Positions 11,226-50,781 of a stretch of DNA of 50,781 nucleotides are shown here, one piece after another. Position 1 is the stretch's first letter, and each line of letters begins with the position of its first letter. The stretch is from a virus, in IMG/VR virus record IMGVR_UViG_3300045988_030121, positions 1 through 50,781 of that record, one strand, 5' to 3'. The notes beneath the pieces were generated by a model that worked only from the letters and a program-made list of their open reading frames with translations, was not told the origin of the DNA and did no database searches. A program made the position numbers and the translations under genes.

Positions 11226-11290
11226 TTCATATTGTTTTCCGTTGCTTTAACTTTGCGGTGTTAAAGGTTTACAAATGCAAAGTAACGCAT

Positions 11291-11304: not shown

Positions 11305-11321
11305 ACAAGAAAAATACGCAA

Positions 11322-11335
11322 TATTTCGTGAAGAT
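11322..11335. promoter_or_regulatory. Operator-like site B (TATTTCGTGAAGAT)
   Basis: Its centre is 31 bp from the centre of site A. 14 of 20 positions are identical to A when the flanking ACGCA is included. Confidence 0.45.
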
Positions 11336-12609: not shown

Positions 12610-13895
12610 TGCACATTCAAAGGGGAATCAAGTTCATTTTGCACAAGAGGAATCCGAATCAGGCGCAAAACCTCGGAATCCGCTTGCGTGTCACATTGCG
12701 GGGCAAGACACCCATTGATTTTCCCCTCGGATTCTCAACCGACATTGAGAATTGGGATGCATCTGAACAAATGGCCATTGGTGGGGATAACATGGCCGCA
12801 ATCAACAGAACCATCAAGGAATGGCGCAACACCCTTGATGAAATCTTTGCACGGTATGAGTTGATTGAGAAACGCACCCCCGAACCTGATGAATTGAAAG
12901 ACTTGTTCAATGACACCATCGGACGGCAAACCGACTTGAAGAAAGAGTTGGACAAGCTGGAAGCCGAACAAAACCCCGGATTCTTCAAGGTGTTCGACAT
13001 CTTCATGATTAAGACCGGCAAGCAAAACCAATGGATGGAATCAACATTCAAGAAGTTCCGCACCATCAAGCGCACATTGAGGGACTATGACAAGAAACTT
13101 TCTTTCGACACCATCACCCATGACAAGATGCAAGGGTACATGGAAAGCCTTTTGAAAGCCGGCAAGAAAAACACCACCGTTGCCAAAGACATTTCATTTG
13201 TCCGCTGGTTCCTGCATTGGGCATATCTCAATGGATATTACAACGGGAATCTTCATGAGACATTCAAGCCCAAGTTGAAAGGCGCGGACGGGGCTTCAAA
13301 GGAAATCATATTCCTGACAAGGGATGAAGTGAACAAGCTGGAAGAATGGCAATTCAAGCCCGAACAAAAAGCCCTTGAAAGGGTGCGTGATGTGTTCTTG
13401 TTCTGTTGCTTCACGGGGCTTCGATATTCGGATGTGGCAAAGCTGAAAAAGGCCGATGTCAAACAAGGGTACATTGATGTTGTCACCCAAAAGACCAATG
13501 ACAGCTTGAAGATTGAGTTGAACAGGCATTCACAAGCAATCATTGACAAGTACAAGGATGCCGGCGCATGGGATGGCCTTGCCTTGCCGGTAATCTCAAA
13601 CCAAAAGATGAATGATGCCCTGAAAGACTTGGGCAAGTTGTGCGGGATTGATGACCCCGTGCGGATTGTCTATTTCAAGGGGAATGAAAGGTGTGAGGAT
13701 GTCAAGCCGAAATATGAGGTCTTGACAACCCATTGCGCCCGGCGCACCTTTGTCGTGTCGGCCCTGCAATTGGGCATCCCCTCGGAAGTCATCATGCGTT
13801 GGACGGGGCATTCATCATTCAAGGCCATGAAACCATATTACAAAATCGTGGATGAAACGAAAGAGAAAGCAATGACAAAATTCGATGATTTTTGA
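12609..13895 (+). CDS. int: Tyrosine recombinase / phage integrase (Bacteroidales type)
   Basis: 428 aa. Catalytic blocks are CFTGLRYSD (Arg), THCARRTF (H-x-x-R) and WTGHSS...KPYYKI (His and Tyr). Confidence 0.92.
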   Translation: MHIQRGIKFILHKRNPNQAQNLGIRLRVTLRGKTPIDFPLGFSTDIENWDASEQMAIGGDNMAAINRTIKEWRNTLDEIFARYELIEKRTPEPDELKDLFNDTIGRQTDLKKELDKLEAEQNPGFFKVFDIFMIKTGKQNQWMESTFKKFRTIKRTLRDYDKKLSFDTITHDKMQGYMESLLKAGKKNTTVAKDISFVRWFLHWAYLNGYYNGNLHETFKPKLKGADGASKEIIFLTRDEVNKLEEWQFKPEQKALERVRDVFLFCCFTGLRYSDVAKLKKADVKQGYIDVVTQKTNDSLKIELNRHSQAIIDKYKDAGAWDGLALPVISNQKMNDALKDLGKLCGIDDPVRIVYFKGNERCEDVKPKYEVLTTHCARRTFVVSALQLGIPSEVIMRWTGHSSFKAMKPYYKIVDETKEKAMTKFDDF

Positions 13896-13896
13896 T

Positions 13897-13920
13897 GTAC
13901 ACGAATTTGTACACGAATTT
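13897..13920 (+). repeat. Tandem 12-mer (GTACACGAATTT x2), left arm-type repeat
   Basis: Exact tandem duplication. 21 nt recur at 14082-14102. Confidence 0.8.
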
Positions 13921-14081
13921 GGGTATGATTTTTGATATTATATGATATTTGTTAAATCGGAGAAAATGGGCTATGATATTGACAATGAAATATTTGACAC
14001 TTTATGATAGTGTGCAATATCATTCGTTAAAGTCCGCCCATCTCCACAACCTCAATTGATTTTCAATTGGTTACATCATCG

Positions 14082-14102
14082 GTACACGAATTTGTACACG
14101 AA
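14082..14102 (+). repeat. GTACACGAATTTGTACACGAA, right arm-type repeat
   Basis: Identical to 13897-13917. Confidence 0.8.
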
Positions 14103-14869: not shown

Positions 14870-15463
14870 TCAAAGGGTGTTAATGTACTGAATGATGCCA
14901 TCGGCCAGAACCTCGGAACATTCCACAATGGATTTATCGGTCATCAGATAGTTGCAATCTTCACGATTGTCCATGAAGAAATGTTCGACCAGGACGGCGG
15001 GGCAAACGGTCTGCCTTACAACCGCGAAATTTGCCTTGTAGTATTTTTGCAAGGGTTCGGGTTGCCTTGTCTTGAAGCCTTTAGCCTTTGCCCTGTCAAA
15101 AAGCAAATTCGCAAGCCGCACGGATTTCTCGGACGGCTTTGTGTATGTGAACACGCACCATCCGCGGGCATTCATCCATTGGCCGTTGCCGGCCGCGTTC
15201 ACATGGATGGACACAAAGGCCACATTGCCCGGCCCGACCGCATAAGCGACCTTGTTTGCGCGGTTGCATCTTTCCGTCAGGGTTATGTCGGTGATTTCAG
15301 GAACCACGATTTCGGCATCAATCCCCCTGTCTATGAGCAAGGCAAGGGTTGCGGCCGCGCATCGCCTGTTCCAATCATATTCACGCAACTTGCCATCGGG
15401 ACTTCTTTTGCCGGCCGTGTCAATCCCATGTCCTGGGTCAAGAAGCACTTTCACTTTCGTCAT
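14870..15463 (-). CDS. N-acetylmuramoyl-L-alanine amidase (endolysin, Amidase_3-like)
   Basis: KVLLDPGHGIDTAGKRSPDG..REYDWN...VSIHVNAAG. The ATG at 15463 follows the holin stop codon. Confidence 0.85.
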   Translation of the reverse strand: MTKVKVLLDPGHGIDTAGKRSPDGKLREYDWNRRCAAATLALLIDRGIDAEIVVPEITDITLTERCNRANKVAYAVGPGNVAFVSIHVNAAGNGQWMNARGWCVFTYTKPSEKSVRLANLLFDRAKAKGFKTRQPEPLQKYYKANFAVVRQTVCPAVLVEHFFMDNREDCNYLMTDKSIVECSEVLADGIIQYINTL

Positions 15464-16372: not shown

Positions 16373-16756
16373 TTAGTTCAACATTTCAATGATGGCCGCA
16401 TCCACATCCTCGGTGAATGCCAAAAATTCCTTGTATGCTTCCACGGCGGCATCATCCTGACGGATGGCCAAGATGTGCTTGTTGTAGGAGTTCACAAGGT
16501 CAAATTCGGCCGATTCATCAATGACGGAACGGATGAATGCCCGCTTGATATTCGCCTTTGTGGGGGCATCCCAAATGCGGATTTCCCGGCAATTGTACCC
16601 CACCAATTCGGCTTTCTTCTTGCCCTCCGGCACTTCCGTTTCCTCGGTGATGTTGAAACGGACGATGGTTGAACCGTCATTGTCTCTTTCGATGGCAAGC
16701 GGTCGGCCATTCACCACATCATAATGGGCGTTTGGCTCTAACGAATTTAATCTCAT
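16373..16756 (-). CDS. Hypothetical acidic protein immediately downstream of the DGR RT
   Basis: 127-aa ORF. Its ATG at 16756 overlaps the RT 3' end by 38 nt. Confidence 0.5.
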   Translation of the reverse strand: MRLNSLEPNAHYDVVNGRPLAIERDNDGSTIVRFNITEETEVPEGKKKAELVGYNCREIRIWDAPTKANIKRAFIRSVIDESAEFDLVNSYNKHILAIRQDDAAVEAYKEFLAFTEDVDAAIIEMLN

Positions 16757-17750
16757 AAGGAAATGATTTAGAAAGTTTATTCAAAAGATTGATTGAGTTG
16801 CAGTATTTGCACCAACCCCACCACGAACATATTTGCTGCTTGTATTTCTCCATTGTAGGCACAATCTTTCTCTTGTTGAGAATCGCCACCCGGCGGCAAA
16901 GTGCCTGTTTGATGGACTTGCGCAACCTTGTATGAGTGTGACGGAACACATAACCAACGAAGTCAATTCCACGCGCATCAACCGGGAACACCTGATAATT
17001 CTTCTTGACTTTCAATTTCAGATTGTCACGAAGATAGGCGCGGATGTCATGCATGAGTGAATGCAAGAAATCCTTGTCATCGGATAGAATCACGATGTCA
17101 TCGGCATACCGGGAATAATGCTTGACACCTTTCCTTTCTTTCAACCAATGGTCGAAATATGCCAAATACAAATTGGCAAAATATTGGGAAAGGTAGTTGC
17201 CGATGGGGACACCCGCCGGCACGGAATCAATGATTTCATCAAGCAATGCCAAAAGCCTTTCATCTTTCAGCTTCCGGCGCACGATGCCTTTCAGGATGTC
17301 ATGGTCAATGGATGGATAGAACTTGCGGATGTCCATCTTCAAGCAATAGACCGTTCCTTTCGGGTCGGTTTTCAAGGCATGGCGCACCGCCCTTGCACAA
17401 GCATGGATTCCCCGGTTCTTGATGCAAGAATAGGTGTTGCCGTTGAAAATTCCCACCCAAATCGGCTCCATCACATTCATGATGGCATGATGCAAGATTC
17501 TGTCAGGATAGTAAGGCAAACGGAAAATCTGCCTTTCTTTCGGCTCAAAGATTGTGAAGATATGATATTTTGAAGTGTGAAATGTACCGTTCACCAATTC
17601 CTCATGCAAATGCATCAGGTTCGCATCCCGGTTCTTGTCATGGACACGGACACCATAAGACTTCAACTTGCCCTTGCGGGCTTTGTCATCCGCAAGGCGC
17701 AAATTTTCAAGGCTTATGACCTTATCAAAAAGGTTTGCAATTCGCTTCAT
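16719..17750 (-). CDS. DGR-type reverse transcriptase
   Basis: 343 aa. RT motifs include YPSIDH, the DGR hallmark PIGNYLSQYFANLYL, and the catalytic YADD. Sits immediately 3' of the TR. Confidence 0.93.
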   Translation of the reverse strand: MKRIANLFDKVISLENLRLADDKARKGKLKSYGVRVHDKNRDANLMHLHEELVNGTFHTSKYHIFTIFEPKERQIFRLPYYPDRILHHAIMNVMEPIWVGIFNGNTYSCIKNRGIHACARAVRHALKTDPKGTVYCLKMDIRKFYPSIDHDILKGIVRRKLKDERLLALLDEIIDSVPAGVPIGNYLSQYFANLYLAYFDHWLKERKGVKHYSRYADDIVILSDDKDFLHSLMHDIRAYLRDNLKLKVKKNYQVFPVDARGIDFVGYVFRHTHTRLRKSIKQALCRRVAILNKRKIVPTMEKYKQQICSWWGWCKYCNSINLLNKLSKSFPYEIKFVRAKRPL

Positions 17751-17902
17751 TGGTTTGCTTGAATAATAGGCTTCTTCATGGCCTTATGGCATTACCAAAG
17801 CCGTTTTTCGGTATGTAATCTTTTGCCGTTGATTGCTCAACTCATTCAACCCCCGATGGGCCGTTTTTGTGGCAAGGTTTCCGGTATGCAATAAATTTTA
17901 CA

Positions 17903-18016
17903 AGCATAGCTGAGAACCGATATTCGCATTCGTATTCGAAGCCGTGTTATTCGTATTCGCATACACGAAGCCCGCATTCGCACCATTATTCGCATTACCG
18001 CTGAACAACACGCCGC
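17903..18016 (-). repeat. DGR template repeat (TR), 114 bp
   Basis: Non-coding. In the VR frame it reads GVLFSGNANNGANAGFVYANTNNTASNTNANIGSQLC, which is rich in AAY codons. Homologous to VR1 (offset +214) and to VR2. Confidence 0.9.
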
Positions 18017-18090
18017 CGACACCGGACAACCCTTTCTTTTTCATTTCACACCCAAAATGTCACATTTCGATTTGTGCGCTTCGCGCCGAT

Positions 18091-19407
18091 TTATGCGGCC
18101 GCCCGATTTGCGGAATAGCAAAGCCGAGAACCGAAATACGCACCCGTATACGAAGCCGCGCGAGACGTATTCGCAGACACGAAGCCCGCAGACCCACCAT
18201 AATACGCAGCACCGCCGAACAACACGCCGCGTTCACTTACTCCACTATCGGGAATAGATGTGTAGAAGTAATCGCAGAAATATGTGGTTGAACCGCCACC
18301 AACGGCCGATGGCATGATTTCGCCATGTTCTCCCAAGCATATTGCCTTTACATATCCATCATTCCTCGGAAGTTCACCGCGCAACTCATAGTTTACGATT
18401 CCTGAACTTGTGAAGCTGGAAACATCATCGCAAACATAGAAAAGCGACTTGCCACCATCAGCTTCCGACTGAATCAGGCACTTGCAACCATCCGTCCACT
18501 TCCAAATGTGTCCGAAAGGATTTTCCACGCCACGATAAGACGGCACATGCTCAACGGTGGTTGTGGAATCATATTCGGTCGGCATGGTGTAATCCACGAT
18601 GCCCGTGTGATTGCCAAGAGAGTTCGTGACACCGCAAGGCACAACGGGATGATAACCATTAAATGCATTCCACTTGGAAGAATTGAGGTTCGTGACACCA
18701 TTGCCCAAACCGCCCTGACGATGGCCATTCGCATCAAGTTCGGCATTGAACTCCTTTTGCGAATTGAATGTGGCGTATTCCACGGCAAAGAGCCACCACA
18801 GCTTGCGATGGATGTGGTAGGTGTTGCAATTCCAATTCACGGAGCCGCGATTGCGGGCATAGGCCCTGAAATTGGTAAGCGATATTTCCGTTGCCGGCAT
18901 CCCAAGCATTGAACGGTAAGTGCCATCCCATGCCGAATTGTTGCCACCTCCACGATAATCCGCATCGGTGTTCACCACGGCCGCAAGTTTGTTCGTGCTT
19001 CTCTGCACGGTCGCTTCCACGGCCGAAACGAAGTCCCTGCCCCAAAGGGTGAATCCCGGAAGCGGGTATTCGGACATCAGGCAACGCGATTTGTCACCAT
19101 CGGTTTCAAAGCGGACATACATGTCCGGCAAATCAACCATGTACTGACCATCGGAGCCGTCAAGATTGGCGGCCGCGCCATTGTCCCGTTTCGTGGAATC
19201 ATTGGCATGAAGATAGTAATTGACCGTGCCGTCATCTTTGAGGATGCACCGGCGCATCAGGCTTTGAAGCGGGAGAGACTGATGCAATTCATCCTTGCCG
19301 ATTCGTGTCGGGTTCGGATTGGAGACGGTCGCATCCCACTCAATGCCATAATAGTAATCGTATGCGAATTTCGGCTTCGTATCACCGATTCCAATGACAA
19401 GTCCCAT
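18091..19407 (-). CDS. DGR target 1: tail receptor-binding protein with a variable C-terminal (C-type-lectin/FGE-like) domain
   Basis: 438 aa, located at the distal end of the tail module. The C-terminus GVLFGGAAYYGGSAGFVSANTSRAASYTGAYFGSRLCYSANRAAA is encoded by VR1. Confidence 0.88.
   Translation of the reverse strand: MGLVIGIGDTKPKFAYDYYYGIEWDATVSNPNPTRIGKDELHQSLPLQSLMRRCILKDDGTVNYYLHANDSTKRDNGAAANLDGSDGQYMVDLPDMYVRFETDGDKSRCLMSEYPLPGFTLWGRDFVSAVEATVQRSTNKLAAVVNTDADYRGGGNNSAWDGTYRSMLGMPATEISLTNFRAYARNRGSVNWNCNTYHIHRKLWWLFAVEYATFNSQKEFNAELDANGHRQGGLGNGVTNLNSSKWNAFNGYHPVVPCGVTNSLGNHTGIVDYTMPTEYDSTTTVEHVPSYRGVENPFGHIWKWTDGCKCLIQSEADGGKSLFYVCDDVSSFTSSGIVNYELRGELPRNDGYVKAICLGEHGEIMPSAVGGGSTTYFCDYFYTSIPDSGVSERGVLFGGAAYYGGSAGFVSANTSRAASYTGAYFGSRLCYSANRAAA
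18117..18230 (-). repeat. DGR variable repeat 1 (VR1)
   Basis: Ungapped 114-bp alignment to TR with 21 mismatches. 20 are at TR adenines (20 of 28 adenines changed). 1 is a C->G change at 17980/18194. Confidence 0.9.
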
Positions 19408-19706: not shown

Positions 19707-19714
19707 AACAATTT

Positions 19715-19729
19715 GTGTTATAGTAACGC
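19715..19729. promoter_or_regulatory. 15-bp palindrome family, copy b (GTGTTATAGTAACGC)
   Basis: 14/15 match to the consensus. Intergenic, upstream of the DGR operon. Confidence 0.6.
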
Positions 19730-19806
19730 ACAAAAGTCAATAAGTTTGGAATAACTTTTCACCCGGCATCATTCCAAACTTGCCCGGATTTGGCCATTGT
19801 GCGCCA

Positions 19807-30199: not shown

Positions 30200-30678
30200 A
30201 TGGCGTTGATAAGGATGGTCATCTGATACAGCTTTGAGGGCTTGATGTTCCGTGCGAAAAGCCGCGTCAATTCATCAAGTCTTTCTGTATCTTCAACCCA
30301 CTTCACGCCACCACCTCTTGCGGGTTTGGGGATTTCCCTTTCTTCACCCAACGCGGCAATAGCCACGATTCGGGCAAAGCGGATGGAATGGTCATGCACA
30401 AGCCTCCTTGACCTTTCAAGGGCATCTGTGGACTTCATGGCCGCTTCATCAAGGGCAAATTCAATCCATTCCGCGGAAAGCCTGTCAAGGGTTGAAAGTG
30501 TCGGTTCCACAATCTTGAAAGACCTGGTGACATTCTTGCGCTTGTGTTTCTTCACAAGGCCGAAAAACCGCTTTTCGACCTCAAATTCAACATCGTGAAC
30601 GGAGAAATCAACGCCCTTTCCAATCAGGGCATTCAATTCATCCTTTTCCTGTTGCAACTTCTTTATATCTTCATCCAT
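30106..30678 (-). CDS. Tail assembly chaperone (gpG-like)
   Basis: 190 aa and acidic. Positioned between the major tail protein and the TMP. Confidence 0.6.
   Translation of the reverse strand: MDEDIKKLQQEKDELNALIGKGVDFSVHDVEFEVEKRFFGLVKKHKRKNVTRSFKIVEPTLSTLDRLSAEWIEFALDEAAMKSTDALERSRRLVHDHSIRFARIVAIAALGEEREIPKPARGGGVKWVEDTERLDELTRLFARNIKPSKLYQMTILINAMCNLGDFTNSIRLMSSDRTTMPIRIEENKGV
30187..30193 (-). other. Candidate -1 slippery heptamer T TTG GGG
   Basis: In the zero frame of 30106..30678 (AAT TTG GGG GAT). After a -1 slip the codons read TTT GGG in the frame of 29897..30199. Confidence 0.35.
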
Positions 30679-35268: not shown

Positions 35269-35313
35269 AATGTGATGAATTAAATGTGTTATGGTTGTAC
35301 AAAATCAACGGGT

Positions 35314-35321
35314 CAAAGTTA
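35314..35321 (-). promoter_or_regulatory. -7 box TAACTTTG (minus strand) for the head/tail operon
   Basis: Matches TAnnTTTG. It is 6 nt downstream of palindrome c and 45 nt upstream of the ATG at 35268. Confidence 0.5.
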
Positions 35322-35327
35322 ATCATT

Positions 35328-35342
35328 GTTTTATAGTAACAC
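35328..35342. promoter_or_regulatory. 15-bp palindrome family, copy c (GTTTTATAGTAACAC)
   Basis: 14/15 match to the consensus. Lies in the divergent intergenic region. Confidence 0.6.
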
Positions 35343-35453
35343 GCGCCATGTATCAACCAAGTTATCGAATACTTGTGAACATTTTGCTATGCAAATGCAC
35401 AAATTTTCTTGCAAAATAGTTGTTTTATTAAAAATAATCACCACCTTTGCGAT

Positions 35454-35468
35454 GTGTTACTATAACAC
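35454..35468. promoter_or_regulatory. 15-bp palindrome family, copy d (GTGTTACTATAACAC, perfect arms)
   Basis: 34 nt upstream of the ATG at 35503. Preceded by CCTTTG 4 nt upstream. Confidence 0.6.
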
Positions 35469-35502
35469 GATACGCAACAAGAACAATTAAACACTCGCAA
35501 CA

Positions 35503-35835
35503 ATGAAAGCAACTATCGTAAAAGACAATGACTTCAAGACGGTCGGATTCCTTGTGACCTCTAACGGCAAAGACATCATCAGATGGGGAATTTCCCCGCA
35601 TCCGATGGTATTCTGCAAAGAGGTTAATGCAAAGGATTGGGAAACCGACATCATAGCCCTTATTAAACTTCAAGAAAGGCTCATGTGTGAAAAGACCTTT
35701 GTGCAATATTGGTTCGAAGCGGCCGCGGCATCAGGGCTTGACACAAGTGACTTTTCTTTGAGGGTTACGGCCAATGAAAACCGAATCAAGAAAATTGAAA
35801 GCACGATTGAGAACATCATCAACAACATCATTTAA
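35503..35835 (+). CDS. Hypothetical protein (accessory island gene 1)
   Basis: 110 aa. ATG in the conserved ACACTCGCAACAATGAAAG context. Confidence 0.6.
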   Translation: MKATIVKDNDFKTVGFLVTSNGKDIIRWGISPHPMVFCKEVNAKDWETDIIALIKLQERLMCEKTFVQYWFEAAAASGLDTSDFSLRVTANENRIKKIESTIENIINNII

Positions 35836-35843
35836 GTCAAACC

Positions 35844-35859
35844 GGGGGCGAAAGCCCCC
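35844..35859 (+). promoter_or_regulatory. GNRA-tetraloop hairpin GGGGGC-GAAA-GCCCCC
   Basis: Perfect 6-bp GC stem 9 nt after the stop of island gene 1, with no U tract. Possibly an RNA stabiliser or processing element. Confidence 0.4.
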
Positions 35860-35878
35860 ATTGAATCCAACCCGCAAA

Positions 35879-36163
35879 ATGAAAGCATGGTATCTGTCAG
35901 CATTCGATTTTGAAGCCAATCTCACAAGGACATACCGCAAGCCAATCATCAACAATCCGACTGATTGGATGAACGAAAAAGCGGCCTTTCTCAAAAGGGT
36001 CTATCACTTTGACAAATGTGAGGTCATAAATACATACCCCGGAGGTTATGTCCTGATATGCACACGCGCAAAAGCACCGCGCCGCAAGGCGATGGAAATT
36101 CACTTCTATTTGCGCCCCGTCAATGTGGACGGCAAGCGAATCACCCTTATTCACGAACAATAA
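35879..36163 (+). CDS. Hypothetical protein (island gene 2)
   Basis: 94 aa from the ATG at 35879. The track start at 35774 would overlap gene 1 and the hairpin. Confidence 0.5.
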   Translation: MKAWYLSAFDFEANLTRTYRKPIINNPTDWMNEKAAFLKRVYHFDKCEVINTYPGGYVLICTRAKAPRRKAMEIHFYLRPVNVDGKRITLIHEQ

Positions 36164-36185
36164 ACCATCAAAATAAATCGCAACA

Positions 36186-36431
36186 ATGAAAAGCAACAGC
36201 AACATTCATCCCGTTTACAAATCAAGGGTCAAATCTCTTGAAGAAACCCTCACCCTCATCGCCGGTGTTCCGGTCGAAATCACCATCAGGGCCATTGACC
36301 ATTACACATTCACTTTCGATGGCCGCAATGACAAGGCCATGAGCAAACTTCAAGCATTCTTTCTCGGAAAGCTGAACGGGTGCGGCTATGACCAGGAATG
36401 CAACATGTCTTATGCTTATTATGATGCCTAA
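36186..36431 (+). CDS. Hypothetical protein (island gene 3)
   Basis: 81 aa, with the TCGCAACAATGAAA start context. Confidence 0.55.
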   Translation: MKSNSNIHPVYKSRVKSLEETLTLIAGVPVEITIRAIDHYTFTFDGRNDKAMSKLQAFFLGKLNGCGYDQECNMSYAYYDA

Positions 36432-36442
36432 ATCCCACCGCC

Positions 36443-36652
36443 ATGCAAGAGAAACACACATATCGCACACACATCAAGGTTGATGAACTTGCCTTTTTCC
36501 TTGCCCACAATTCCCGGCCATTCGAATGCGGCCGGGATGAAATGGGCTATCACATCCGCTTCAAGTGTGAACCCGATTTCCTTGAATACGCCATCAAGGA
36601 GCGCCCGCAATTCTCCATGATAAACTTCATTGATGATGGAATCCGCGGTTAA
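36443..36652 (+). CDS. Hypothetical protein (island gene 4)
   Basis: 69 aa with an ATG start. Confidence 0.5.
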   Translation: MQEKHTYRTHIKVDELAFFLAHNSRPFECGRDEMGYHIRFKCEPDFLEYAIKERPQFSMINFIDDGIRG

Positions 36653-36845
36653 GACTTCCACAAAGCGCACGATTTCCCCGTCTCCAATCCGCGTTGTTGT
36701 CACGGGGCCTCGTGGCGGCCTTGTCACCATGCGTTATTTCAATGACAAGGAAAGGGCAACGGACTTTTTTACCGATTGCCTTGCCAAATATCTTGATTAC
36801 AATGTCGAACTTGAAAATTTATGTGAAGATGGCTATTATAGATAA
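36633..36845 (+). CDS. Hypothetical protein (island gene 5), uncertain
   Basis: 70 aa from the first ATG. Overlaps both neighbouring genes. Confidence 0.35.
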   Translation: MMESAVKTSTKRTISPSPIRVVVTGPRGGLVTMRYFNDKERATDFFTDCLAKYLDYNVELENLCEDGYYR

Positions 36846-37182
36846 CAGACAAAGCCCGCCCGTGCCAAAGTACATAAAAGACCTCATGGCAAGGGCATCA
36901 TTCCAATTCTCGCAATCTTTTGCTGAACCCGGCTATACTATTGCCATAGGGAAAAGGACGGATTACACCCAAATTCAAACCCTCAAAGAAGAAATTGAGC
37001 AATTGTCCAAGTGGGTACACAAAGAATGCCGCCGGCGCGGAATGGACAAGGCCGGTGCGGATTCCACCATCATAGTCCACAGCATTCCACACATCACCCT
37101 GTATTGCCCGCAATATGCCTTTGTTACAATCTTTGACCCCATCATGCAAAGCCTTGAACCCTTTATCCCCAAGAAGAAATGA
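36829..37182 (+). CDS. Hypothetical protein (island gene 6)
   Basis: 117 aa from the ATG at 36829 (MAIIDNRQSPP...). Its stop codon overlaps the next ATG (ATGA). Confidence 0.5.
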   Translation: MAIIDNRQSPPVPKYIKDLMARASFQFSQSFAEPGYTIAIGKRTDYTQIQTLKEEIEQLSKWVHKECRRRGMDKAGADSTIIVHSIPHITLYCPQYAFVTIFDPIMQSLEPFIPKKK

Positions 37183-37685
37183 AACCGCAAGACAAAGAGA
37201 AAATCAAGAAGATTCGTGCCGACATCAAGGCTTCCAGCATCCCGGAAGAACTGAAAGTGCTGTACCTCTTGGCGAATGCCGTGGAAATCATATCGCAACA
37301 GTCCCTTTTGCGCCTGAAATCCGTATATGCACGGCATGGGTACAAAATCAAGGGCAATGACATGCTCACCGGCCTGAACCAATATTGCACTTATCAGAAG
37401 ATGGCAGCTTTCCAATTCTTCGAAAGGATTGACCCGGCCATCATCAATGCCACATGGGGAGCCGACCGCGATGAAGATGACCCAAACGCCCCCGGAAACG
37501 CGGCTGCGATAGATTCTTTCAATGAGGATGCAAATGAAATCATCCGCCTTGTGTACCTCTACATTGACCGCACTTCACGCAATAATGAGGGCTTTGCAAA
37601 GGTGTTCAAGACCTTGCGGCAATTGCCATCATGCGGGCTTTTCAAGGATGAAGATATTGCAAGATACAAAATGAAGCACCTATGA
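37179..37685 (+). CDS. Hypothetical protein (island gene 7)
   Basis: 168 aa, with ATGA overlaps at both ends. Confidence 0.6.
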   Translation: MKPQDKEKIKKIRADIKASSIPEELKVLYLLANAVEIISQQSLLRLKSVYARHGYKIKGNDMLTGLNQYCTYQKMAAFQFFERIDPAIINATWGADRDEDDPNAPGNAAAIDSFNEDANEIIRLVYLYIDRTSRNNEGFAKVFKTLRQLPSCGLFKDEDIARYKMKHL

Positions 37686-37933
37686 TTGGAAAAGAACCCG
37701 ATACATTGGGGATGCTTGACATCCTCACAAAGAACCATGTCGCATATAACATCACGAACCTTGTCATCAATGGGCTTGATGCCAATGGGCAAGTGGAATA
37801 CCGGCCCGAACACCATTGTGTCATCAGATTCGCCGGCCGTGACTTGTATTGCTTCATCGGGGATTCTTTTGAAAGAGTTGTCCGTGATGCCTTTGTCAAG
37901 GCCGTTGAATGTGGACTTGTCTTGCATTGTTGA
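37682..37933 (+). CDS. Hypothetical protein (island gene 8)
   Basis: 83 aa. Confidence 0.5.
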   Translation: MIGKEPDTLGMLDILTKNHVAYNITNLVINGLDANGQVEYRPEHHCVIRFAGRDLYCFIGDSFERVVRDAFVKAVECGLVLHC

Positions 37934-37964
37934 TTGTTTTATTAAATAAATTCACTATCTTTGT

Positions 37965-38558
37965 ATGAAAAATGATTTTACCATTGAGGAACTTGCAGCC
38001 AAGTATGGCTTGGAAGTTGCCTTTGCCGAAAGCCTTGCCGCCAAGATTGAGGACAAGGAAAACACCGTCCGCGCTTTCAGGATGTTTGCCGATGGCAAGC
38101 TGCCTTATGAGATTGCGACCCGCAAGGACACCACAATCAATGTGGCCGCGCTGCGCCATCAGATTGCCGTGAAACTTGTTGAACTGCGCAAGAACCAGGA
38201 AGAAGCCGCCCGTATGCAAATGGAGCATGAGAAGCGCATCTTTGAGTTTTACAATGGATGTGAACACATAGACCATGAACACACCGTATTCAGGAAAAGG
38301 GCGGTGGAAAGGGTTTATATCAAGGATGGCCATCTTGTTGCCTTTGCCCACTTTGAGGGGAAAACCGGTGGCATCTATGGGGCAAACAATGAGGTGATGC
38401 CCGCTTTCAAATGGCAACCCAAGAACTATTTGCGACAGCTCCGGAAAATCAACAAGGCATTCTTCCGCGCCGTCAAACATGCTGCGTATGCGGATGATGC
38501 AGAACTATTCAGGATGGATGAAAGAACCATAAGAAAGGACAAGACAAATGAACGGTGA
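37965..38558 (+). CDS. Hypothetical protein (island gene 9)
   Basis: 197 aa. Confidence 0.6.
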   Translation: MKNDFTIEELAAKYGLEVAFAESLAAKIEDKENTVRAFRMFADGKLPYEIATRKDTTINVAALRHQIAVKLVELRKNQEEAARMQMEHEKRIFEFYNGCEHIDHEHTVFRKRAVERVYIKDGHLVAFAHFEGKTGGIYGANNEVMPAFKWQPKNYLRQLRKINKAFFRAVKHAAYADDAELFRMDERTIRKDKTNER

Positions 38559-38784
38559 TACCATTTACCACCTGACCATCAAAGATGCGAACACGAACCA
38601 TTATTTTGGCTCTATTTCCGCAATCTTTGATGTGTTCACACCAACGGACATTGGTGTGAGCAAAACGCGCTTGTGGGGCTTCAAATTGACCGAGAACAAG
38701 CCGTATGAAAACAAGTTAATCATTCTCCGAAAGGGGAACTTGCACCGCAAGTCCTCTTACCGGGGACAAAAACGCAACAGATAA
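38548..38784 (+). CDS. Hypothetical protein (island gene 10)
   Basis: 78 aa. Confidence 0.5.
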   Translation: MNGDTIYHLTIKDANTNHYFGSISAIFDVFTPTDIGVSKTRLWGFKLTENKPYENKLIILRKGNLHRKSSYRGQKRNR

Positions 38785-38785
38785 T

Positions 38786-39562
38786 ATGATTGGAACAATT
38801 ATCGGTGATATTGTCGGGTCTCGCTTTGAGTTTGCAAACCATCGAAGCAAGCATTTCGACCTGTTCACCATCAAATGTGACTTCACGGATGACACCATCA
38901 TGACGATGGCCGTTGCCGATGCCTTGCAGAAAGGCAAGAGGTTCGACCGCGCATTCCGTGAATTTGGGAAACGGTACAACCGACCAATGGGCGGTTATGG
39001 CGCATCATTCCGCCAATGGCTTGACACGCCCGGAATGCCGGCTTACTATTCCTTTGGGAATGGCGCGGCCATGCGTGTTTCCCCCGTGGCCTTGCGCTTC
39101 AAGGATAAGCCCCTTGAAGATTGCCTTGCAATGGCCGAACAAACGGCCGTGGTGACACACAACCACCCCGAGGGCATCAAGGGTGCAAGATGCGTTGCAC
39201 ACCTCATTTGGGCGGCTCTCAATGGCGCAACAACAAAGCTGGCTATGTTCGCCATCGCAAGCAAGTATTATGAGGAAATTGATGGGCTTTCCGTGGATGA
39301 CATCAGGCAAGACAACATCTTTGATGAATCATGCCAAGTTACCGTTCCGCAAGCCATCGAATGTTTCCTTGAAGCATCTTCCTTTGAGGATGCCATCAGG
39401 AATGCAGTGTCCATCGGGGGTGATTCCGACACCATCGCGGCCATCACCGGCGGCATCGCGGAAGCATTCTTTGGTGTTCCGTTTGATTTGCAAGTGCAAG
39501 CCCGGCGATACCTGACACCAGAATTTATCAACATCCTAAATCGTGAATACAATGGCAAATAA
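38786..39562 (+). CDS. ADP-ribosylglycohydrolase (ARH/DraG family)
   Basis: 258 aa. Blocks are GDIVGSRFEF, FTDDTIMTMAVADAL, GGYGASF..W, GNGAAMRVSP and GGDSDTIAAITGGIAEAFFG (metal-binding Asp clusters). Confidence 0.88.
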   Translation: MIGTIIGDIVGSRFEFANHRSKHFDLFTIKCDFTDDTIMTMAVADALQKGKRFDRAFREFGKRYNRPMGGYGASFRQWLDTPGMPAYYSFGNGAAMRVSPVALRFKDKPLEDCLAMAEQTAVVTHNHPEGIKGARCVAHLIWAALNGATTKLAMFAIASKYYEEIDGLSVDDIRQDNIFDESCQVTVPQAIECFLEASSFEDAIRNAVSIGGDSDTIAAITGGIAEAFFGVPFDLQVQARRYLTPEFINILNREYNGK

Positions 39563-39872
39563 AGCTGAACTTTTGAAGTCTTGCCGGTTTTATGATGGCA
39601 AGGATGATTGTGGTTTCCCATCGGGGAGTGAGGAAGAAACCCTTTGGGCAATTGAACGGCTTTGGGTAAACAAGACATTACAGAAAGATGTCTTATTTAT
39701 CGAATCCGCGGTCAATGATTTCCTTGCCTATGGCTTGAACACTTTGGAAAGGCATGATGGCATTCCCGTTGAACTGAAAGCCGTTCTTTTCAATCGGTTC
39801 TCACAATACAATGAAAGGGTGGACACGGCGGCATTCAGAGACTATTATAAAAGACACTATGCAAAAGATTAG
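39552..39872 (+). CDS. Hypothetical protein (island gene 12)
   Basis: 106 aa from the ATG at 39552; the track start is a GTG. Confidence 0.5.
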   Translation: MANKAELLKSCRFYDGKDDCGFPSGSEEETLWAIERLWVNKTLQKDVLFIESAVNDFLAYGLNTLERHDGIPVELKAVLFNRFSQYNERVDTAAFRDYYKRHYAKD

Positions 39873-39894: not shown

Positions 39895-42800
39895 TTAATC
39901 AAATGTGCAATATGTTCCGTTGCTTGAATGATTGACCTTGAAATTACGAGTCTCTTGTCCAAGCACTTCCACATCAATGTACCACATATCTTGCGCCTTG
40001 TCATATTCGGCTTTCGTGATACGCATCTTCGTACCTCTTTGCAACAAGACCTCGTTTTCATCATGTTTCCCCGGATTCGCCTTTTTGACACCATCCCAAG
40101 AACTGCCGAATGTCCCACATGATGAAAAGGCTTGGCAATATACGCCCTTTGTCCCTTTTGGACAATAGATGTTGTAAATTACATCTTTCTTTCCCGTGCA
40201 TGTGAACCTTGTTTCACGGCATGAGCCACAAGACATGAATGAATTATCTTGCCCAATTCTCCCTACAAGTGCGGACGGATTATTTCGATATGCCGCCAAT
40301 GATGGAATCCCAAACACATATTCGGCATCCCATGCGCCGGCATCCCTTTTTATCCAAACATCATTCGTGCAAATGTCAATGTCAAGGGCTTTTGTCAAAG
40401 ACTTTATATGCCTTTCGATTTCATCATCCGAATGTCTCCATGGGGCTTCATAATAGTGCCCACTGATTGCCCTCAATGGCTCCGTAATATAGGCACTTCC
40501 ACTTGTATATCCAGCAAATGCCCTCTTTTCATCATCAGTTGCCTTTTTCCAATATGCGGCTTGAAACTTATGGAAATAATCATCAGCATCCTGTGCTGTC
40601 AAATGCCATTTCGCAATATCCTTTCGGCTTTGACTGTACACATCATCAATATCTTCGCCCAATTGTTTCAATAAGGTGCGAATCTTCTTGTTATCAGGAT
40701 TGTCACCCGAAAGGATGATGGATATTTCATTGTACTTACTCTCTTGAAGTTTCGTCAATGGTGCTTTACCACTCAATGCATCAGTTATTCTCCGCGAACA
40801 CAAGGCAAATGCCGCATCCTCAAATTCTTCATCAGTCAAGGTGTATTGTAATGAATCATTTGATGATTTTGGTTTTCTGCGGCTCAATGTATGTTGCACG
40901 AACTTGTTGATTTCATCAAGTTTTGAGCGCATCAATGAAATTGATGCATCTGATTTTGCTACCAATGCTTGCCACTCGGAAACAAGTTCCTTTCCTTTCG
41001 GGCTTTTCGATGATTGAAGTGTTGCAATCGGCATTTGTGCTTGGCTTATCAATTCTTGCCGTTCCATCTGATATGAGACATCGGCAAGTTTCTTCTTGTA
41101 CGCCTTTTGCGCCACTTCCCAAGTGACATATTTATGATGTGCAGGGTCATCAAGATATTTGATTTCCCACTCCAACTTCATCTTCAAGTAATCCAATGCT
41201 GGATTCTTTTGATTCCATTGGTTTAACTTTGATTCAACGGCATTGAAAGCGGCATGAACAGCATCGGAGCCGAATTGTGCCTTTGCATCGGCCACATCAA
41301 CAAGCAAGGTGGAAAGATGCTCATTGTCTTTGGCTTCTTTGATGGCTTCCTGCAATTCCGTGATGGCCGATGTATAAGAAGCCTTGTCAAACGACCAAGT
41401 GGAATGATTGCCTTGCAATTTCTTCATCATTACCGCATAATGAGACACCGGGATGCCGTGATTCATCGCTTCCTGCATCAAAGGCATAATCTTGGCAATC
41501 CACGCATTGACATCTTCCAGCAACTTTTGCCCCGTGGCAACAATCTGTTCAATGCCGGTGGTGATTGAATGCATGTTCTTGTTCTGAATACCCACATCAA
41601 TCTGTGCCGTGGAAAGCCCCCATTCCTGTGCGACTTGCCGGGCTTGCTCAATCTGCGGCATGATGGCCATCAACTGCGGCTTGAAAGTGTCCACGGCCGT
41701 CTTGTTCTCAAAGGCATCAAGCAACTCTTGCGGGATGCCCTCTTTATCACCCATCATCCATTGTGAGAACCATTCCGCAAGCTGTTCCCGGTCGGTGGTC
41801 TTTGCGTATGTGGAATTGTATGCGTTGCCGGCATAACCCTCACCTCCGTTGAACTTGTGGTCGAAAAGATGCCCAAATTCATGGTGAATAGTCGCTTTCA
41901 CGCGGTCTTTCACATCTTTCAGGGAATATGCATAAGTGAAAGTGATTTCATCATGGCCGGCGGCAATATCCTTTTGGAACTTGCCAATCTTGATTTCGAT
42001 GTCGGTGACACGGGACTTCATTTGCTTGATGTCCTGTTTCAACATCTTGTCCGCGGCCGGATTGATGCCCAACTTGGCTTCAAATTGCATGATTTGCTCT
42101 TGCAACTTGGCCTTTTGCACTTCAAGGGATGCGATTTTCTCCAAGATGGGCTTGCCCGAATCCGCATCATCACCGAAAATGTCAAGGTTGATGACTATTT
42201 CATTGGTCTGCGTGTTGTAATGCCCACCCTCTTTCTTTGTGTGCATGTCACCTTTGGCGAATGAAAGGCCATTCAGGGGGATTCCGGCATCACCGAAATA
42301 GTCAAATTCCTCTTGCAAGGCTTCAAGGATGATGTTTGCCTGTTCCACCGTGGCATTACCAAAGTCAATGTGGCTGATTCCGAACCCCTTTGCCACCTCA
42401 ATCGCTTGCATGATAGTCTTGACACCACCATCATTCGCCCCTTGCTTCAATCCAAGAGACAATTGCCCGTCAATGAAGTTGTCCGCGATGAAATACGGGG
42501 TTGATGCCCAATTCTCTTGTGCCGCCACATTCTCCGAAATCCATTCCTTGAACCCGACCGGGACATCCAGCACCTCATTCTTTGCCCTCTTGGGCTTGTA
42601 TGGCTTGCCGGTCAATGCGGCTATCAATTCAGCTTGCTCATTGGCGTTGCGCGTTTCTTCATCCATAAGGATGGGGGTTGCATAACACATGCATTGCGGA
42701 TGCCACCCCTTGAACTTGAATGTCTTTGGATAACGCCCCACAAGCCGTTCACACAACTTGCACTTGCACAACGGCTTATGGGTTGAACGGTGAATCTCAA

Positions 42801-50551: not shown

Positions 50552-50781
50552 TCACTTCACGATGTCATAAATAAGTTTTGTCAATTCTATGTCATACTGA
50601 GCATCATGCAAGGCATCATCTTCAACGGCAATATTCAGGAACTTGGCAACCGTGGAAAGTTTGAAATTCTCCATTTCCTCCCGGCGGTCAAGAAGATAGT
50701 TGGATGCAAGCACCATCACATCAACCGAGTTCGACCAAAACCATGAGCCGAAATATTCATCCCCGTTCTGCAAGAAGAATC
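50552..50781 (-). CDS. C-terminal part of the DEDDh exonuclease gene that starts at position 450 (50663-50781 duplicates 1-119)
   Basis: HDAQYD ExoIII motif. The frame is continuous with 1..450 across the circular junction. Confidence 0.85.
   Translation of the reverse strand, partial: FFLQNGDEYFGSWFWSNSVDVMVLASNYLLDRREEMENFKLSTVAKFLNIAVEDDALHDAQYDIELTKLIYDIVK
50663..50781. repeat. Terminal direct repeat, copy 2 (identical to 1-119)
   Basis: By-eye comparison, exact match. Confidence 0.9.

Follow-up and report, generated by a model that had tools for sequence, protein, structure and literature searches.

Five copies of a palindrome lie between genes of a temperate phage genome

The window, by which we mean the whole 50,781-nucleotide stretch of DNA analyzed here, holds a circular temperate phage genome of 50,662 bp, because positions 1 to 119 are identical to positions 50663 to 50781. 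A megablast search with 10 kb of the sequence found no match to a near-identical isolate among 50,697 phage records, and only two Porphyromonas gingivalis phages are close at the protein level.

Five copies of the palindrome GTGTTACTATAACAC, each with at most one mismatch, start at positions 462, 19715, 35328, 35454, and 48479 and are referred to as sites a to e. A first-pass annotation of this DNA had reported such a five-copy palindrome restricted to intergenic DNA, and the report withstood more permissive searches. The full 15-mer at up to three mismatches returned the same five sites, against 0.29 expected, and none of 100 shuffles reached six (the search output had six rows, since site d was counted again on the other strand). 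The form GTGTTANNNTAACAC occurs exactly only once, at 35454-35468, where site d has its perfect arms; at up to two mismatches it was found at exactly five sites, compared with 0.82 expected, a number reached by 1 of the 100 shuffles. All five copies are intergenic, with none extra in coding DNA. The 15-mer, which had been taken as the unit, is a real core, but the functional unit that emerges from the relatives described below is a 19-bp site. The putative operators of the window are as follows.

460-478: site a, putative 19-bp operator; core 462-476, GTATTACTATAACAC; exonuclease ATG (450, minus strand) 9 nt downstream
19713-19731: site b, putative 19-bp operator; core 19715-19729
35326-35344: site c, putative 19-bp operator; core 35328-35342; lies within the spacer region of the promoter for head and tail genes
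35452-35470: site d, putative 19-bp operator; core 35454-35468, with perfect arms; the transcription start is expected within it
48477-48495: site e, putative 19-bp operator; core 48479-48493

Site a is flanked by the stop codon of a C5-methyltransferase-like gene (485-487) and by the ATG of the exonuclease gene (450), which spans the window junction. Site b lies between an ORF end at 19737 and an ATG at 19678, and site e lies between the RuvC stop codon (48521) and an ATG at 48431. The latter is the likely start, rather than 48485 in a longer ORF that overlaps site e, because the extension would contain the -7 box of this site. Sites c and d share a 234-bp divergent gap (35269-35502), where they are separated by 126 bp from center to center. 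The central triplet is oriented. Sites a and d read CTA on the plus strand; for b, c, and e, CTA is the minus-strand sequence.

The copies adjoin Bacteroidota-type promoter elements

All five sites adjoin a sequence resembling the -7 element of the canonical Bacteroides sigma-A promoter, which consists of a -33 TTTG and a -7 TAnnTTTG. The boxes that had been pointed out at a to e were found as described, with gaps of 8, 6, and 8 nt between motif and box at b, c, and e. These boxes and the neighboring elements are listed by position.

476-483, minus strand: -7-like box of a, TAAATTTG; its last G is common to the motif, and it stands directly after the methyltransferase stop codon
19699-19706, minus strand: -7 box of b, TAATTTTG; 8 nt past the motif; diversity-generating retroelement (DGR) and lysis unit, ATG 19678
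19736-19757, minus strand: upstream element of b, AAGTTATTCCAAACTTATTGAC, the window version of the family element AAGTTATGCTTTACTTATC
35284-35306, minus strand: leader element conserved in the head operon, with the family form GATTTGTAACACAT; contains one operator half-site
35314-35321, minus strand: -7 box of c, TAACTTTG; 6 nt past the motif; head and tail promoter, ATG 35268
35359-35377, minus strand: upstream element of c, CACAAGTATTCGATAACTT; in relatives TGTGGATAAGTAAAGCATAAGT, containing the DnaA-box-like TGTGGATAA
35386-35402, plus strand: TGCA-repeat block, GCTATGCAAATGCACAA, located between promoters c and d; in the family, ATGCAnnTGCAnTGCAAAA
35420-35422, plus strand: TTG of d fitting a -33 element, 19 nt before the -7 box
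35442-35449, plus strand: -7 box of d, CACCTTTG; 4 nt ahead of the core motif and 2 nt ahead of the 19-mer
48463-48470, minus strand: -7 box of e, TATTTTTG; 8 nt past the motif; packaging unit, ATG 48431
48507-48531, minus strand: upstream element of e, AAGTTCGATAACTCAATAATAACTT; overlaps the 3' end of the RuvC gene

The match to TAnnTTTG is perfect at a, b, c, and e. The box at d is weak in the window and a perfect TAnnTTTG in relatives, where the TTG again lies 19 nt upstream; among the window promoters, d is the only one with a TTG at the -33 distance. With its operator over +1, the d promoter has the classical geometry of a repressed promoter. No TTTG was found 19 to 21 nt upstream of the -7 box at b, c, or e. 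Unlike the canonical promoter, these three have the palindrome in the place of the -33 element, together with an upstream element of ATAAGT repeats that is common to them. The box at a abuts the motif in the window, as had been noted, but it is not conserved: most relatives lack a -7 box at site a, which simply precedes the exonuclease ATG by 5 to 9 nt. A near copy of the TGCA-repeat block, GCAAAGCAAATGCACAA, is present 3' of the e -7 box at 48447-48463.

A symmetric 19-bp site is conserved at orthologous positions in relatives

The motif first noticed in this single genome recurs at orthologous positions in approximately 300 related loci from Prevotella, Alistipes, Bacteroides, and Porphyromonas prophages. 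The b, c, d, e, and a positions are conserved among phages that are 57 to 90% related, and the element is also kept in relatives at 65 to 72% nucleotide identity, in Porphyromonas phage005a, which is carried by the cultivable strain Porphyromonas gingivalis ATCC 49417, and in Bacteroides pyogenes prophages. When relatives were selected by the gene downstream of b, 24 of the 26 distinct ones had an orthologous site, and the center-to-center distance between c and d is 124 to 128 bp (mode, 126) in 21 relatives. Most loci anchored on RuvC fell into a more distant group, and clear a or e sites were not obtained from them. At least 133 of 212 sites in relatives fall in non-coding DNA, as judged with a crude ORF caller that over-calls coding sequence (93% coding).

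The family consensus is a symmetric degenerate 19-mer, GTGT-D-T-Y-A-CTA-T-R-A-H-ACAC. Among 77 distinct 19-mers (275 occurrences), positions 3, 4, 6, 8, 9 to 12, 14, and 16 to 18 are almost invariant, and the degenerate positions are themselves mirrored (Y7 by R13 and D5 by H15), so that the site displays the two-fold symmetric conservation of an operator. Discrete, covarying 15-bp and 19-bp classes were considered and abandoned in favor of one degenerate consensus, with several half-site variants occurring within single genomes. In distant clades, both half-sites drift together, from TGTnTYA to CGTATTA. The central CTA/TAG flips relative to transcription between lineages and site types, with TAG in 22 of 24 b sites and CTA in most c and d sites.

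The position of the element relative to the promoter varies. At b, c, and e, it precedes the -7 box by 0 to 10 nt; at d and a, it follows the box by 2 to 4 nt; and in a third context, seen in relatives, it stands 5 to 9 nt ahead of start codons that have no promoter. Over all sites and clades, the center of the palindrome ranges from approximately 26 bp upstream of the TA of the box to approximately 20 bp downstream. The distance from the end of the 19-mer to the box is 0 to 2 nt at c (4 nt in the window), 4 to 6 nt at e, 4 to 8 nt at b, and 17 to 19 nt in the relative L389; the spacing at c is tightly kept across very distant clades, whose major capsid proteins (MCPs) are 57 to 100% identical.

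The statement that the palindrome heads only non-early units is accurate for this window but does not extend to the family, as 40 of 80 relative loci sampled have a copy inside the left early operon. Other relatives carry copies between the terminase and portal genes, after the tape-measure gene, or just past the integrase gene. The immunity region, searched from -3.0 to +1.4 kb of the GerE gene in 80 loci that were chosen independently, contains no copy; it has its own, different inverted repeat.

The palindrome has the properties of a double-stranded DNA site

A palindrome near gene starts could function as a hairpin in RNA or single-stranded DNA, serving as a 5' stabilizer, a translational operator near start codons, or a terminator. 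Many copies do lie 5 to 9 nt before ATGs, d and a would stand at the extreme 5' end of their transcripts, and site e is embedded in a stable structure with a U-tract.

48475-48497, minus strand: terminator-like hairpin around site e; 10-bp stem with 5 G-C pairs, tail TTTTTATTTT, -14.4 kcal/mol

This hairpin is placed at the end of the exonuclease-to-RuvC unit, and e is the only site with a G+C-rich stem and a T-run; b, c, and d were left unflagged by the terminator scan. (The scan uses a sigma-70 consensus, which does not cover Bacteroidota-type promoters, and only its terminator output was considered.) An apparent terminator before the TerL/portal copy in relatives has a stem of only 4 to 5 bp and was discarded. 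Fold energies of the five window sites range from 0 to -14.4 kcal/mol, those of a, b, c, and d from 0 to -4.8 kcal/mol; site c forms no fold (0 kcal/mol), and for the family's commonest site the value is only -0.4 kcal/mol, with a z-score of 0.08. Variable arm positions are uncompensated, with few Watson-Crick pairs: positions 5 and 15 pair in 33, and positions 7 and 13 in 40, of the 77 distinct sites. Site c lies upstream of its own -7 box in the divergent gap, where transcription is not expected, and an Rfam scan of the window gave no match. Because the arms do not covary, the energies vary, and the center (the loop of any hairpin) flips strand, the palindrome is better understood as a double-stranded site for a symmetric dimer than as an RNA hairpin, an explanation that we regard as largely refuted in general. 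The first-pass annotation had argued against simple terminators. This holds insofar as hairpin stability is not conserved, although e is also a good intrinsic-terminator-like hairpin.

Judged from its sequence and conservation, the palindrome is very probably a double-stranded DNA operator bound by a symmetric dimer of a phage-encoded regulator. The earlier proposal, that a dimeric protein recognizes a specific sequence where non-early units start, is also supported by the orthologous conservation, the symmetry, and the lack of copies in the immunity region. A promoter for a T7- or T4-late-like phage polymerase, suggested by the CACTATA/TATAAAAC center, was dropped, as the site is symmetric; the largest unassigned protein is a MuF-ADP-ribosyltransferase fusion, and the phage005a annotation lists no RNA polymerase. 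Alternatively, the dimer might be a host global regulator or nucleoid protein that couples prophage late genes to host physiology. The core GT-N-T-Y-A N3 T-R-A-N-AC is indeed kept across prophages of several Bacteroidales genera, as a shared host factor would allow, but the outer bases and the center drift by phage clade, as expected from co-evolution with a phage protein, and no mention of the motif sequences turned up in the literature. We consider a host factor very improbable.

Candidate regulators are encoded in the early and lysogeny operons

Three phage proteins are of interest for regulation at these promoters.

1575-2162, minus strand: DUF4406 protein with a DnaA domain-IV helix-turn-helix (HTH) (DnaA_C); present in all palindrome-bearing phages examined
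2159-3169, minus strand: Rha and KilAC/ANT antirepressor-like protein; early operon
12319-12609, plus strand: p96, a 96-amino-acid XRE/Cro-CI-like HTH protein; lysogeny operon, immediately upstream of the integrase gene

Only p96, p103 (10914-11225), and DnaA_C are recognized DNA-binding proteins found in all four palindrome-bearing genomes compared. p96, which is conserved and encoded beside the integrase gene, appears to be the best candidate for the palindrome binder. It is 55% identical between the window and phage005a, though the immunity repressors of the two are unrelated. Its predicted recognition helix, LNRTKYSRIK, is nearly invariant where the operator center is CTA/TAG; the helix changes to LHRPKYSNxR in four loci with the sites GTATYA-C(A/T)(G/C)-TGATAC, a correspondence confounded by phylogeny. 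The AF2 model of p96 (pLDDT, 90.8) has five helices, and the top Foldseek matches in the PDB were all XRE-type repressors or controller proteins, with weak E values of 0.2 to 3 and TM-scores of 0.45 to 0.59. Pfam gave only a sub-threshold match to HTH_19, PHROG repressor families matched at approximately 4e-4, and PDB sequence searches with p96 and with DUF3853 yielded no usable match. p103 and DnaA_C fit the presence/absence pattern as well as p96 does.

Several HTH proteins had been nominated as binders by the first-pass annotation. The one at 12319-12609 fits best, whereas the GerE/LuxR protein (10522-10914) was rejected, as phage005a keeps the palindrome and has no homolog of it, even by profile search. 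DUF3853 (9991-10272), an excisionase/AlpA-like winged-helix protein, is weakened as a candidate by its absence from the relatives L388 and L389, which keep the palindrome. DnaA_C is a candidate for binding the asymmetric upstream element rather than the palindrome, and the Rha/ANT protein might antagonize a repressor that has no cleavage domain.

Repression by occupancy is favored over activation

The 19-mer stops 0 to 8 nt short of the -7 box or begins 2 nt beyond it and so overlaps the core promoter or the start. A bound regulator could act by occupancy of host sigma-A-type promoters. It would take up the spacer or -33 region of promoters b, c, and e and cover the transcription start of d and a. 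At the promoter-less copies just before start codons in relatives, a bound protein could only be a roadblock. In a prophage, binding would silence structural and packaging units as well as those for lysis and accessory functions. This would not depend on the immunity repressor, which has its operators elsewhere. The c and d operators, 126 bp or 12 helical turns apart, could in addition be bridged as a loop. The b, c, and e promoters, having no -33 element, would probably be served by an activator bound to the ATAAGT-repeat element. If p96 is the palindrome binder, the Rha/ANT protein of the early operon could lift its repression. We give about even chances to this reading as a whole, in which the palindrome is an operator for a phage regulator that acts mainly by repression through occupancy.

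The palindrome could also be where an antiterminator of the lambda Q or AlpA type loads. Bound within or beside the promoter, such a processive factor would modify RNA polymerase and thereby allow read-through of terminators in the long late operons. The center of site c lies in the promoter spacer, like the lambda Q binding element in PR', the TTTG-containing leader element GATTTGTAACAC after the c -7 box could be a sigma-dependent pause, site e is embedded in its terminator-like hairpin, and the phage encodes the AlpA-like DUF3853. The leader element, however, is found at c only, L388 and L389 do without DUF3853, and the promoter-less and +1 copies would go unexplained; Pfam, PHROG, and NCBIfam scans of the proteins examined revealed no lambda Q homolog. 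Antitermination thus seems quite improbable.

The more serious competitor is a late activator, or a dual-function switch, made from an early or middle operon and acting like P1 Lpa or a restriction-modification controller protein. Bound in the promoter spacer, it would turn b, c, and e on; bound over +1, it would turn d and a off. These two groups differ in kind, the former heading structural, packaging, and lysis units and the latter accessory or replication units. At b, c, and e, a perfect -7 box without an upstream TTTG leaves a space that the palindrome fills, and the spacing at c is nearly fixed across clades. There is also precedent, because the late genes of all well-studied phages are under positive control, and in P1 all 11 late promoters pair a -10 element with an inverted repeat, the site of the activator (Lpa), which stands in for the -35 element (PMC10695390). 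The center-to-box distance, however, differs by 5 bp among c, e, and b and by approximately 15 bp in L389; an activator would therefore be placed on different helix faces, which we count against this explanation. Promoter-less copies before essential late genes, such as the portal gene and the gene that follows the tape-measure gene, would serve no purpose for an activator or would do harm. The usual place for activator binding is already taken by a separate upstream element, and the best-fitting binder is encoded in the lysogeny operon. Activation through the palindrome is possible but doubtful.

The first-pass annotation had offered either an activator in place of -33 recognition or a global repressor. 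An occluding repressor is to be preferred to a stereospecific activator because the distance to the -7 box is variable and copies occur at +1 or in promoter-less gaps, from which we infer the sign of regulation. Three observations sit uneasily with repression: a model with a repressor only leaves late timing after infection of a naive cell unexplained, occlusion would not require the tight 0- to 2-nt spacing at c across distant clades, and an activator in the promoter spacer has a precedent in P1 Lpa.

A tentative extension of repression by occupancy is a two-key late switch. Throughout this family of Bacteroidales prophages (Prevotella, Alistipes, Bacteroides, Porphyromonas, and others), p96 would serve as a conserved second repressor that locks every host-type promoter of late and accessory genes through the shared 19-bp operator, an antirepressor would release it, and an activator at the ATAAGT element would supply the second key. 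Such a lock would be independent of the immunity repressor, which is not of one kind among these phages, with unrelated proteins at the immunity-repressor position in the window and in phage005a. Literature searches on the motif sequences and on late promoters of Bacteroides prophages gave no relevant result, and we found no published description of late-gene timing or silencing in temperate Bacteroidales phages; a two-key switch, if real, has not been described for any Bacteroidota phage.

The palindrome belongs conceptually to a known class, phage operators, and its value is practical rather than revolutionary. Together with the ATAAGT-repeat element and the -7 box, it defines a concrete, testable late-promoter architecture conserved throughout the family, one that can be used to draw transcription units in hundreds of uncultured gut and oral prophages and that comes with a short list of regulators. 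If the repressor reading is correct, it would also supply Bacteroides engineering with a portable operator-repressor pair and offer a way to manipulate prophage induction.

Comparison with known phage regulatory sites

In phage P1, the Lpa inverted repeat is located near -22, and many operators are bound by C1, a repressor without a cleavage domain that is antagonized by antirepressor-type proteins. The present phage resembles P1 in that one temperate genome carries many short protein-binding sites heading separate transcription units, and the proposed binder, like C1, has no cleavage domain. It differs in its promoter grammar, which is that of the Bacteroidota -7 TAnnTTTG, and in its symmetric 19-mers, as C1 operators are asymmetric 17-mers. 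Moreover, one motif is found here both in the spacer, like the Lpa box, and at +1, like a repressor operator; site c agrees with the Lpa-type geometry, but the distance is not constant across the b, c, and e promoters or in L389.

The stoperators of mycobacteriophage L5 are numerous sites in intergenic gaps at which the gp71 repressor blocks elongation as well as initiation. The promoter-less copies before ATGs in relatives recall these. L5 stoperators are asymmetric, lie in one orientation, and share their sequence with the site at the early promoter, whereas the palindrome is symmetric, has a center that flips, and is absent from the immunity region. The binding elements of lambda Q and Pseudomonas AlpA are DNA sites within or beside a late promoter that are bound by a small phage-type protein; those proteins are antiterminators acting at a single promoter with a defined pause site, compared with 5 to 10 sites per genome in three positional contexts here.

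Controller (C) proteins of restriction-modification (R-M) systems and XRE repressors of the Cro/CI type are small five-helix HTH dimers with palindromic operators in or near the -35 region, and C proteins activate or repress according to the operator occupied. An extra N-terminal helix distinguishes p96 from these proteins, and no R-M system is involved. The best fold matches of p96 are C.BclI, C.Esp1396I, 186 CI, 434 Cro, P22 c2, lambda cI, and P2 C.

Gene order of the phage genome

An exact 119-bp duplication joins the two ends of the window (bases 1-119 = 50663-50781); the window is therefore a temperate phage genome, 50,662 bp long and assembled as a circle, with a junction spanned by the exonuclease gene (450 down to 50552). 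Gene order was derived from ORF lists, Pfam and PHROG scans, and comparison with phage005a, a Porphyromonas gingivalis prophage. It is listed here with the five copies (sites a to e) of a 15-bp palindrome.

11366-11731, plus strand: XRE-type immunity repressor, in the lysogeny operon, with small ORFs after it
12319-12609, plus strand: 96-aa HTH protein (p96), lysogeny operon
12609-13895, plus strand: integrase, lysogeny operon
11225 down to 485, minus strand: early-left operon, divergent from the lysogeny operon; its first part encodes a Cro-like 103-aa protein (p103), a GerE/LuxR HTH protein, DUF3853, an SbcC-like ATPase, and RecT, and the rest a metallo-beta-lactamase nuclease, a replication initiator and loader, Rha/ANT, DUF4406-DnaA_C, and a cytosine methyltransferase
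450 to 48521, crossing the junction: exonuclease-MazG-SSB-RuvC unit, behind site a (462-476)
48431 to 39895: packaging unit, behind site e (48479-48493)
35503-39872, plus strand: accessory island, behind site d (35454-35468)
35268 to about 19737: head and tail unit, behind site c (35328-35342)
19678 to 14268: diversity-generating retroelement (DGR) and lysis unit, behind site b (19715-19729)

The palindrome recurs in the window and in related phages

A search with GTGTTANNNTAACAC, which has one exact occurrence in the window, returned five sites at up to two mismatches, each with at most one. These are the five copies reported in the first-pass annotation; all of them (5/5) lie between genes, as it had claimed, and the adjoining -7 boxes (TAnnTTTG, the Bacteroidota sigma-A element) were found where it had placed them. 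The full 15-mer GTGTTACTATAACAC at up to three mismatches matched the same sites and no others (0.29 expected), a count reached in 0 of 100 shuffles. The central triplet has an orientation: the strand carrying CTA is plus at sites a and d and minus at the other three.

Scanning viral contigs for the exact 15-mer gave, besides chance hits, about 30 loci that can be aligned with the window (65-72% identity) and two close relatives. In these, the exact motif is found at the orthologs of sites d, e, b, and a. To remove motif-selection bias, we gathered protein-anchored loci, the anchors being the GerE gene (n = 80), RuvC (n = 24), the major capsid protein (n = 80), the first gene after site b (n = 42), and p96 (n = 80), together with prophages in named genomes (n = 39). 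Hosts include Prevotella, Alistipes, Bacteroides pyogenes, Alloprevotella, Parabacteroides, Muribaculaceae, and Paludibacter. The 15-mer (≤2 mismatches) is present at the c and d positions in 50 of the 80 capsid-anchored loci, and the remaining 30 carry recognizable variants in those places. Upstream of the first gene after b, the core palindrome is found in 24 of 26 distinct regions, followed by TAnnTTTG in 24/24. The c, e, and b positions of phage005a read GTGTTTTA-TAT-TAAAACAC.

Conservation of the palindrome points to a dimeric protein

Pooling 275 occurrences (77 distinct) gave the family consensus G T G T D T Y A C T A T R A H A C A C. The 15-mer seen in the window corresponds to the core of this 19-mer, whose outer GT/AC has decayed in the window's clade. 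Positions 3, 4, 6, 8, 9-12, 14, and 16-18 are near-invariant, and the variable positions mirror each other (Y7/R13, D5/H15). Watson-Crick pairing is found at 5/15 in 33 and at 7/13 in 40 of the 77 distinct sequences; covariation thus does not preserve pairing. In distant clades (capsid identity of ~60%), both half-sites shift together to CGTATTA or CGTATCA, and the center is free. RNA folding yielded -4.8, -3.0 (a different fold), 0, -4.3, and -14.4 kcal/mol for the five window sites and -0.4 kcal/mol (z-score, 0.08) for the commonest family site, and no Rfam family matched anywhere in the window. In the direction of transcription, the triplet is CTA at most c and d sites and TAG at 22 of 24 b sites; its orientation at b and e differs between the window and its relatives.

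Because conservation is symmetric and sequence specific, without structural compensation or fixed polarity, we infer that the palindrome is very probably the operator of a phage-encoded symmetric dimer. The first-pass annotation had preferred a dimeric-protein site to simple terminators. The symmetric conservation upholds this, with a reservation at e, where the site probably also terminates the upstream unit: it is extended to a 10-bp stem followed by a T-run, and a comparable stem is built from other flanking bases (AAAGGGT...ACCCTTT) in relatives.

Operator positions favor repression

The operator occurs in three contexts. In class I (b, c, and e), 0-8 nt separate the 19-mer from a TAnnTTTG box downstream of it. 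The gap at c is 0-2 nt in almost every clade (4 nt in the window); at e it is 4-6 nt, and b sites have 4-8 nt. One distant phage has a gap of 17-19 nt. These promoters have no -33 element (TTTG) and carry a separate upstream element in the zone usual for activators. In class II (d, plus site a of the window), the 19-mer follows the end of the -7 box by 2 nt and so covers the expected start. A TTG 19 nt upstream of the -7 box makes d a complete host-type promoter, and with the operator over +1 it is a textbook repressed promoter. Class III copies, seen only in relatives, stand 5-9 nt before start codons without a recognizable box: before the exonuclease gene, in the terminase/portal gap, after the tape-measure gene, and inside the accessory island. 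Others lie ~100 bp past the integrase stop and, in 40 of 80 GerE-anchored loci, mid-left operon, 5-6 kb past GerE. This last copy precedes a homolog of gene 5380-5835 by 5-9 nt, splitting the left operon (among loci L122-L201). The window (5836-5847) has no such copy, carried by half of the sampled relatives; it was either lost or never present.

A stereospecific activator is expected to keep to a single position and helical face; an occupancy or roadblock repressor can act anywhere in the footprint or path of the polymerase. Measured from the TA of the -7 box, the operator center ranges across sites and clades from ~26 bp upstream to ~20 bp downstream; copies also occur in gaps without promoters. 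A repressor is favored by this variable distance, by the promoter-less copies, by the geometry of d, and by the upstream element at b, c, and e, which holds the usual activator zone and leaves the palindrome as a negative element. The bound dimer would silence all non-early units in the prophage and might also loop the c and d operators together, a reading that, judged from sequence, has about an even chance of being correct. In 21 relatives, the center-to-center distance between c and d is 124-128 bp (mode, 126, or 12 helical turns). The main rival is an activator resembling P1 Lpa or a controller protein, or else a dual switch. It is supported by the near-fixed palindrome-to-box spacing at c and by positive control of late genes as a general rule among phages (PMC10695390). 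An activator is hard to reconcile with that range of positions and with the promoter-less copies, however, and we consider this rival less likely than repression.

p96 is a candidate operator binder

In a profile search over four palindrome-bearing genomes (the window, phage005a, and the related loci L388 and L389), p96 (12319-12609), p103 (10914-11225), and the DUF4406-DnaA_C protein (1575-2162) were the only recognized DNA-binding proteins common to all four. The GerE/LuxR protein was rejected as the binder since the search found no homolog in phage005a, where the palindrome is kept. DUF3853 is a weakened candidate, none being found in L388 or L389. The XRE-type immunity repressor is limited to the window's clade. 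In distant relatives, GerE-type and DUF3853-type early genes are apparently mutually exclusive (L388 and L389 versus L306, L391, and L392); the window has both.

The window and phage005a versions of p96 share 55% identity, although the immunity repressors of the two phages are unrelated. Its predicted recognition helix is near-invariant (LNRTKYSRIK) where the operator center is CTA/TAG and becomes LHRPKYSNxR in four loci with sites GTATYA-C(A/T)(G/C)-TGATAC, a covariation confounded by phylogeny. The AF2 model has a pLDDT of 90.8, and the top PDB fold matches, at weak E-values, are all XRE-type phage repressors or R-M controller proteins. Location in the lysogeny operon fits a prophage-state repressor. 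From sequence and predicted fold, we infer that p96 is the best candidate for the operator binder. The HTH of p103 is variable, as would be expected of a Cro protein coevolving with immunity operators. Since DnaA domain-IV-type domains recognize asymmetric 9-mers, the DUF4406-DnaA_C protein would suit the ATAAGT/DnaA-box-like upstream element better than the palindrome.

No operator copy lies in the immunity region of the GerE-anchored loci (0/80). The window has a different inverted repeat there, TTTCACGAAAT / ATTTCGTGAA (11283-11330), in the gap that separates the immunity repressor from the early operon. It is unrelated to the palindrome and probably serves the XRE-type repressor as its operator.

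Relation to known operators

The system is a phage operator, a known class. Its closest analogues are P1, with dispersed C1 operators and Lpa boxes in late promoters, L5 stoperators, C-protein boxes, and Q/AlpA loading sites. Symmetry of the site and the lack of a copy at the early promoter set it apart from the L5 type. A full-text literature search for the motif sequences found none, and we therefore count the operator as new within its class and the late-promoter architecture as the first to be proposed for temperate Bacteroidales phages.

Other elements of the control regions and genome

Alignment of the c-d divergent region from 18 phages gave the block order d operator, d -7 box, d -33 TTG, TGCA-repeat block, TGTGGATAAGTAAAGCATAAGT, 12-14 variable nt, c operator, c -7 box, and leader element GATTTGTAACACAT. 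The family form TGTGGATAAGTAAAGCATAAGT comprises two ATAAGT repeats and a perfect DnaA-box-like TGTGGATAA. This ATAAGT-repeat element recurs at e and, inverted and only 5-7 nt from the 19-mer, at b:

19736-19757, 35359-35377, and 48507-48531: ATAAGT-repeat element (ATAAGT/AACTT) upstream of the b, c, and e promoters of the window
about 30535-30560, 15240-15265, and 44880-44905: the same element in the related locus L306

It stands in either orientation, ~5 to ~14 nt upstream of the 19-mer, and an activator of the late promoters may bind there. The TGCA-repeat block GCAAATGCACAA (family form, ATGCAnnTGCAnTGCAAAA) lies between the c and d promoters (35386-35402) and again right after the e -7 box (48447-48463).

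Repeats of GTACACGAATTTGTACACGAA following the integrase stop (13897-13917, 13909-13929, and 14082-14102) probably serve as arm-type sites for the integrase in attP; some relatives have an operator copy (GTGTGGCACTATAAAACAC) adjoining repeats of this type. The DGR (16719-18230) includes a putative reverse transcriptase (16719-17750) and a 114-nt template/variable-repeat-like pair (17903-18016 and 18117-18230, 82% identical), the second copy inside the 3' end of a 438-aa gene (18091-19407).

The island behind promoter d looks like a hot spot for accessory cargo. Its content differs widely (window 35503-39872 versus L226-L305 and L306 23766-30500), with antirepressor, lectin-fold, second integrase, XRE regulator, and SLOG-like genes in relatives, and promoter d and operator d are kept despite these differences. 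The product of the window's island gene 38786-39562 looks like an ADP-ribosylglycohydrolase, sharing 50% identity with the one annotated in phage005a. It may be the antidote to a neighboring ADP-ribosyltransferase, the C-terminal toxin domain of a 1,227-aa protein (39895-43578) that the first-pass annotation called MuF and whose N-terminal part aligns to the phage005a minor-capsid protein. In the early operon, the metallo-beta-lactamase-fold nuclease (6379-7122) is the counterpart of a phage005a gene annotated Anti-Pycsar (Apyc1-like), and its Pfam family was flagged in relatives too.
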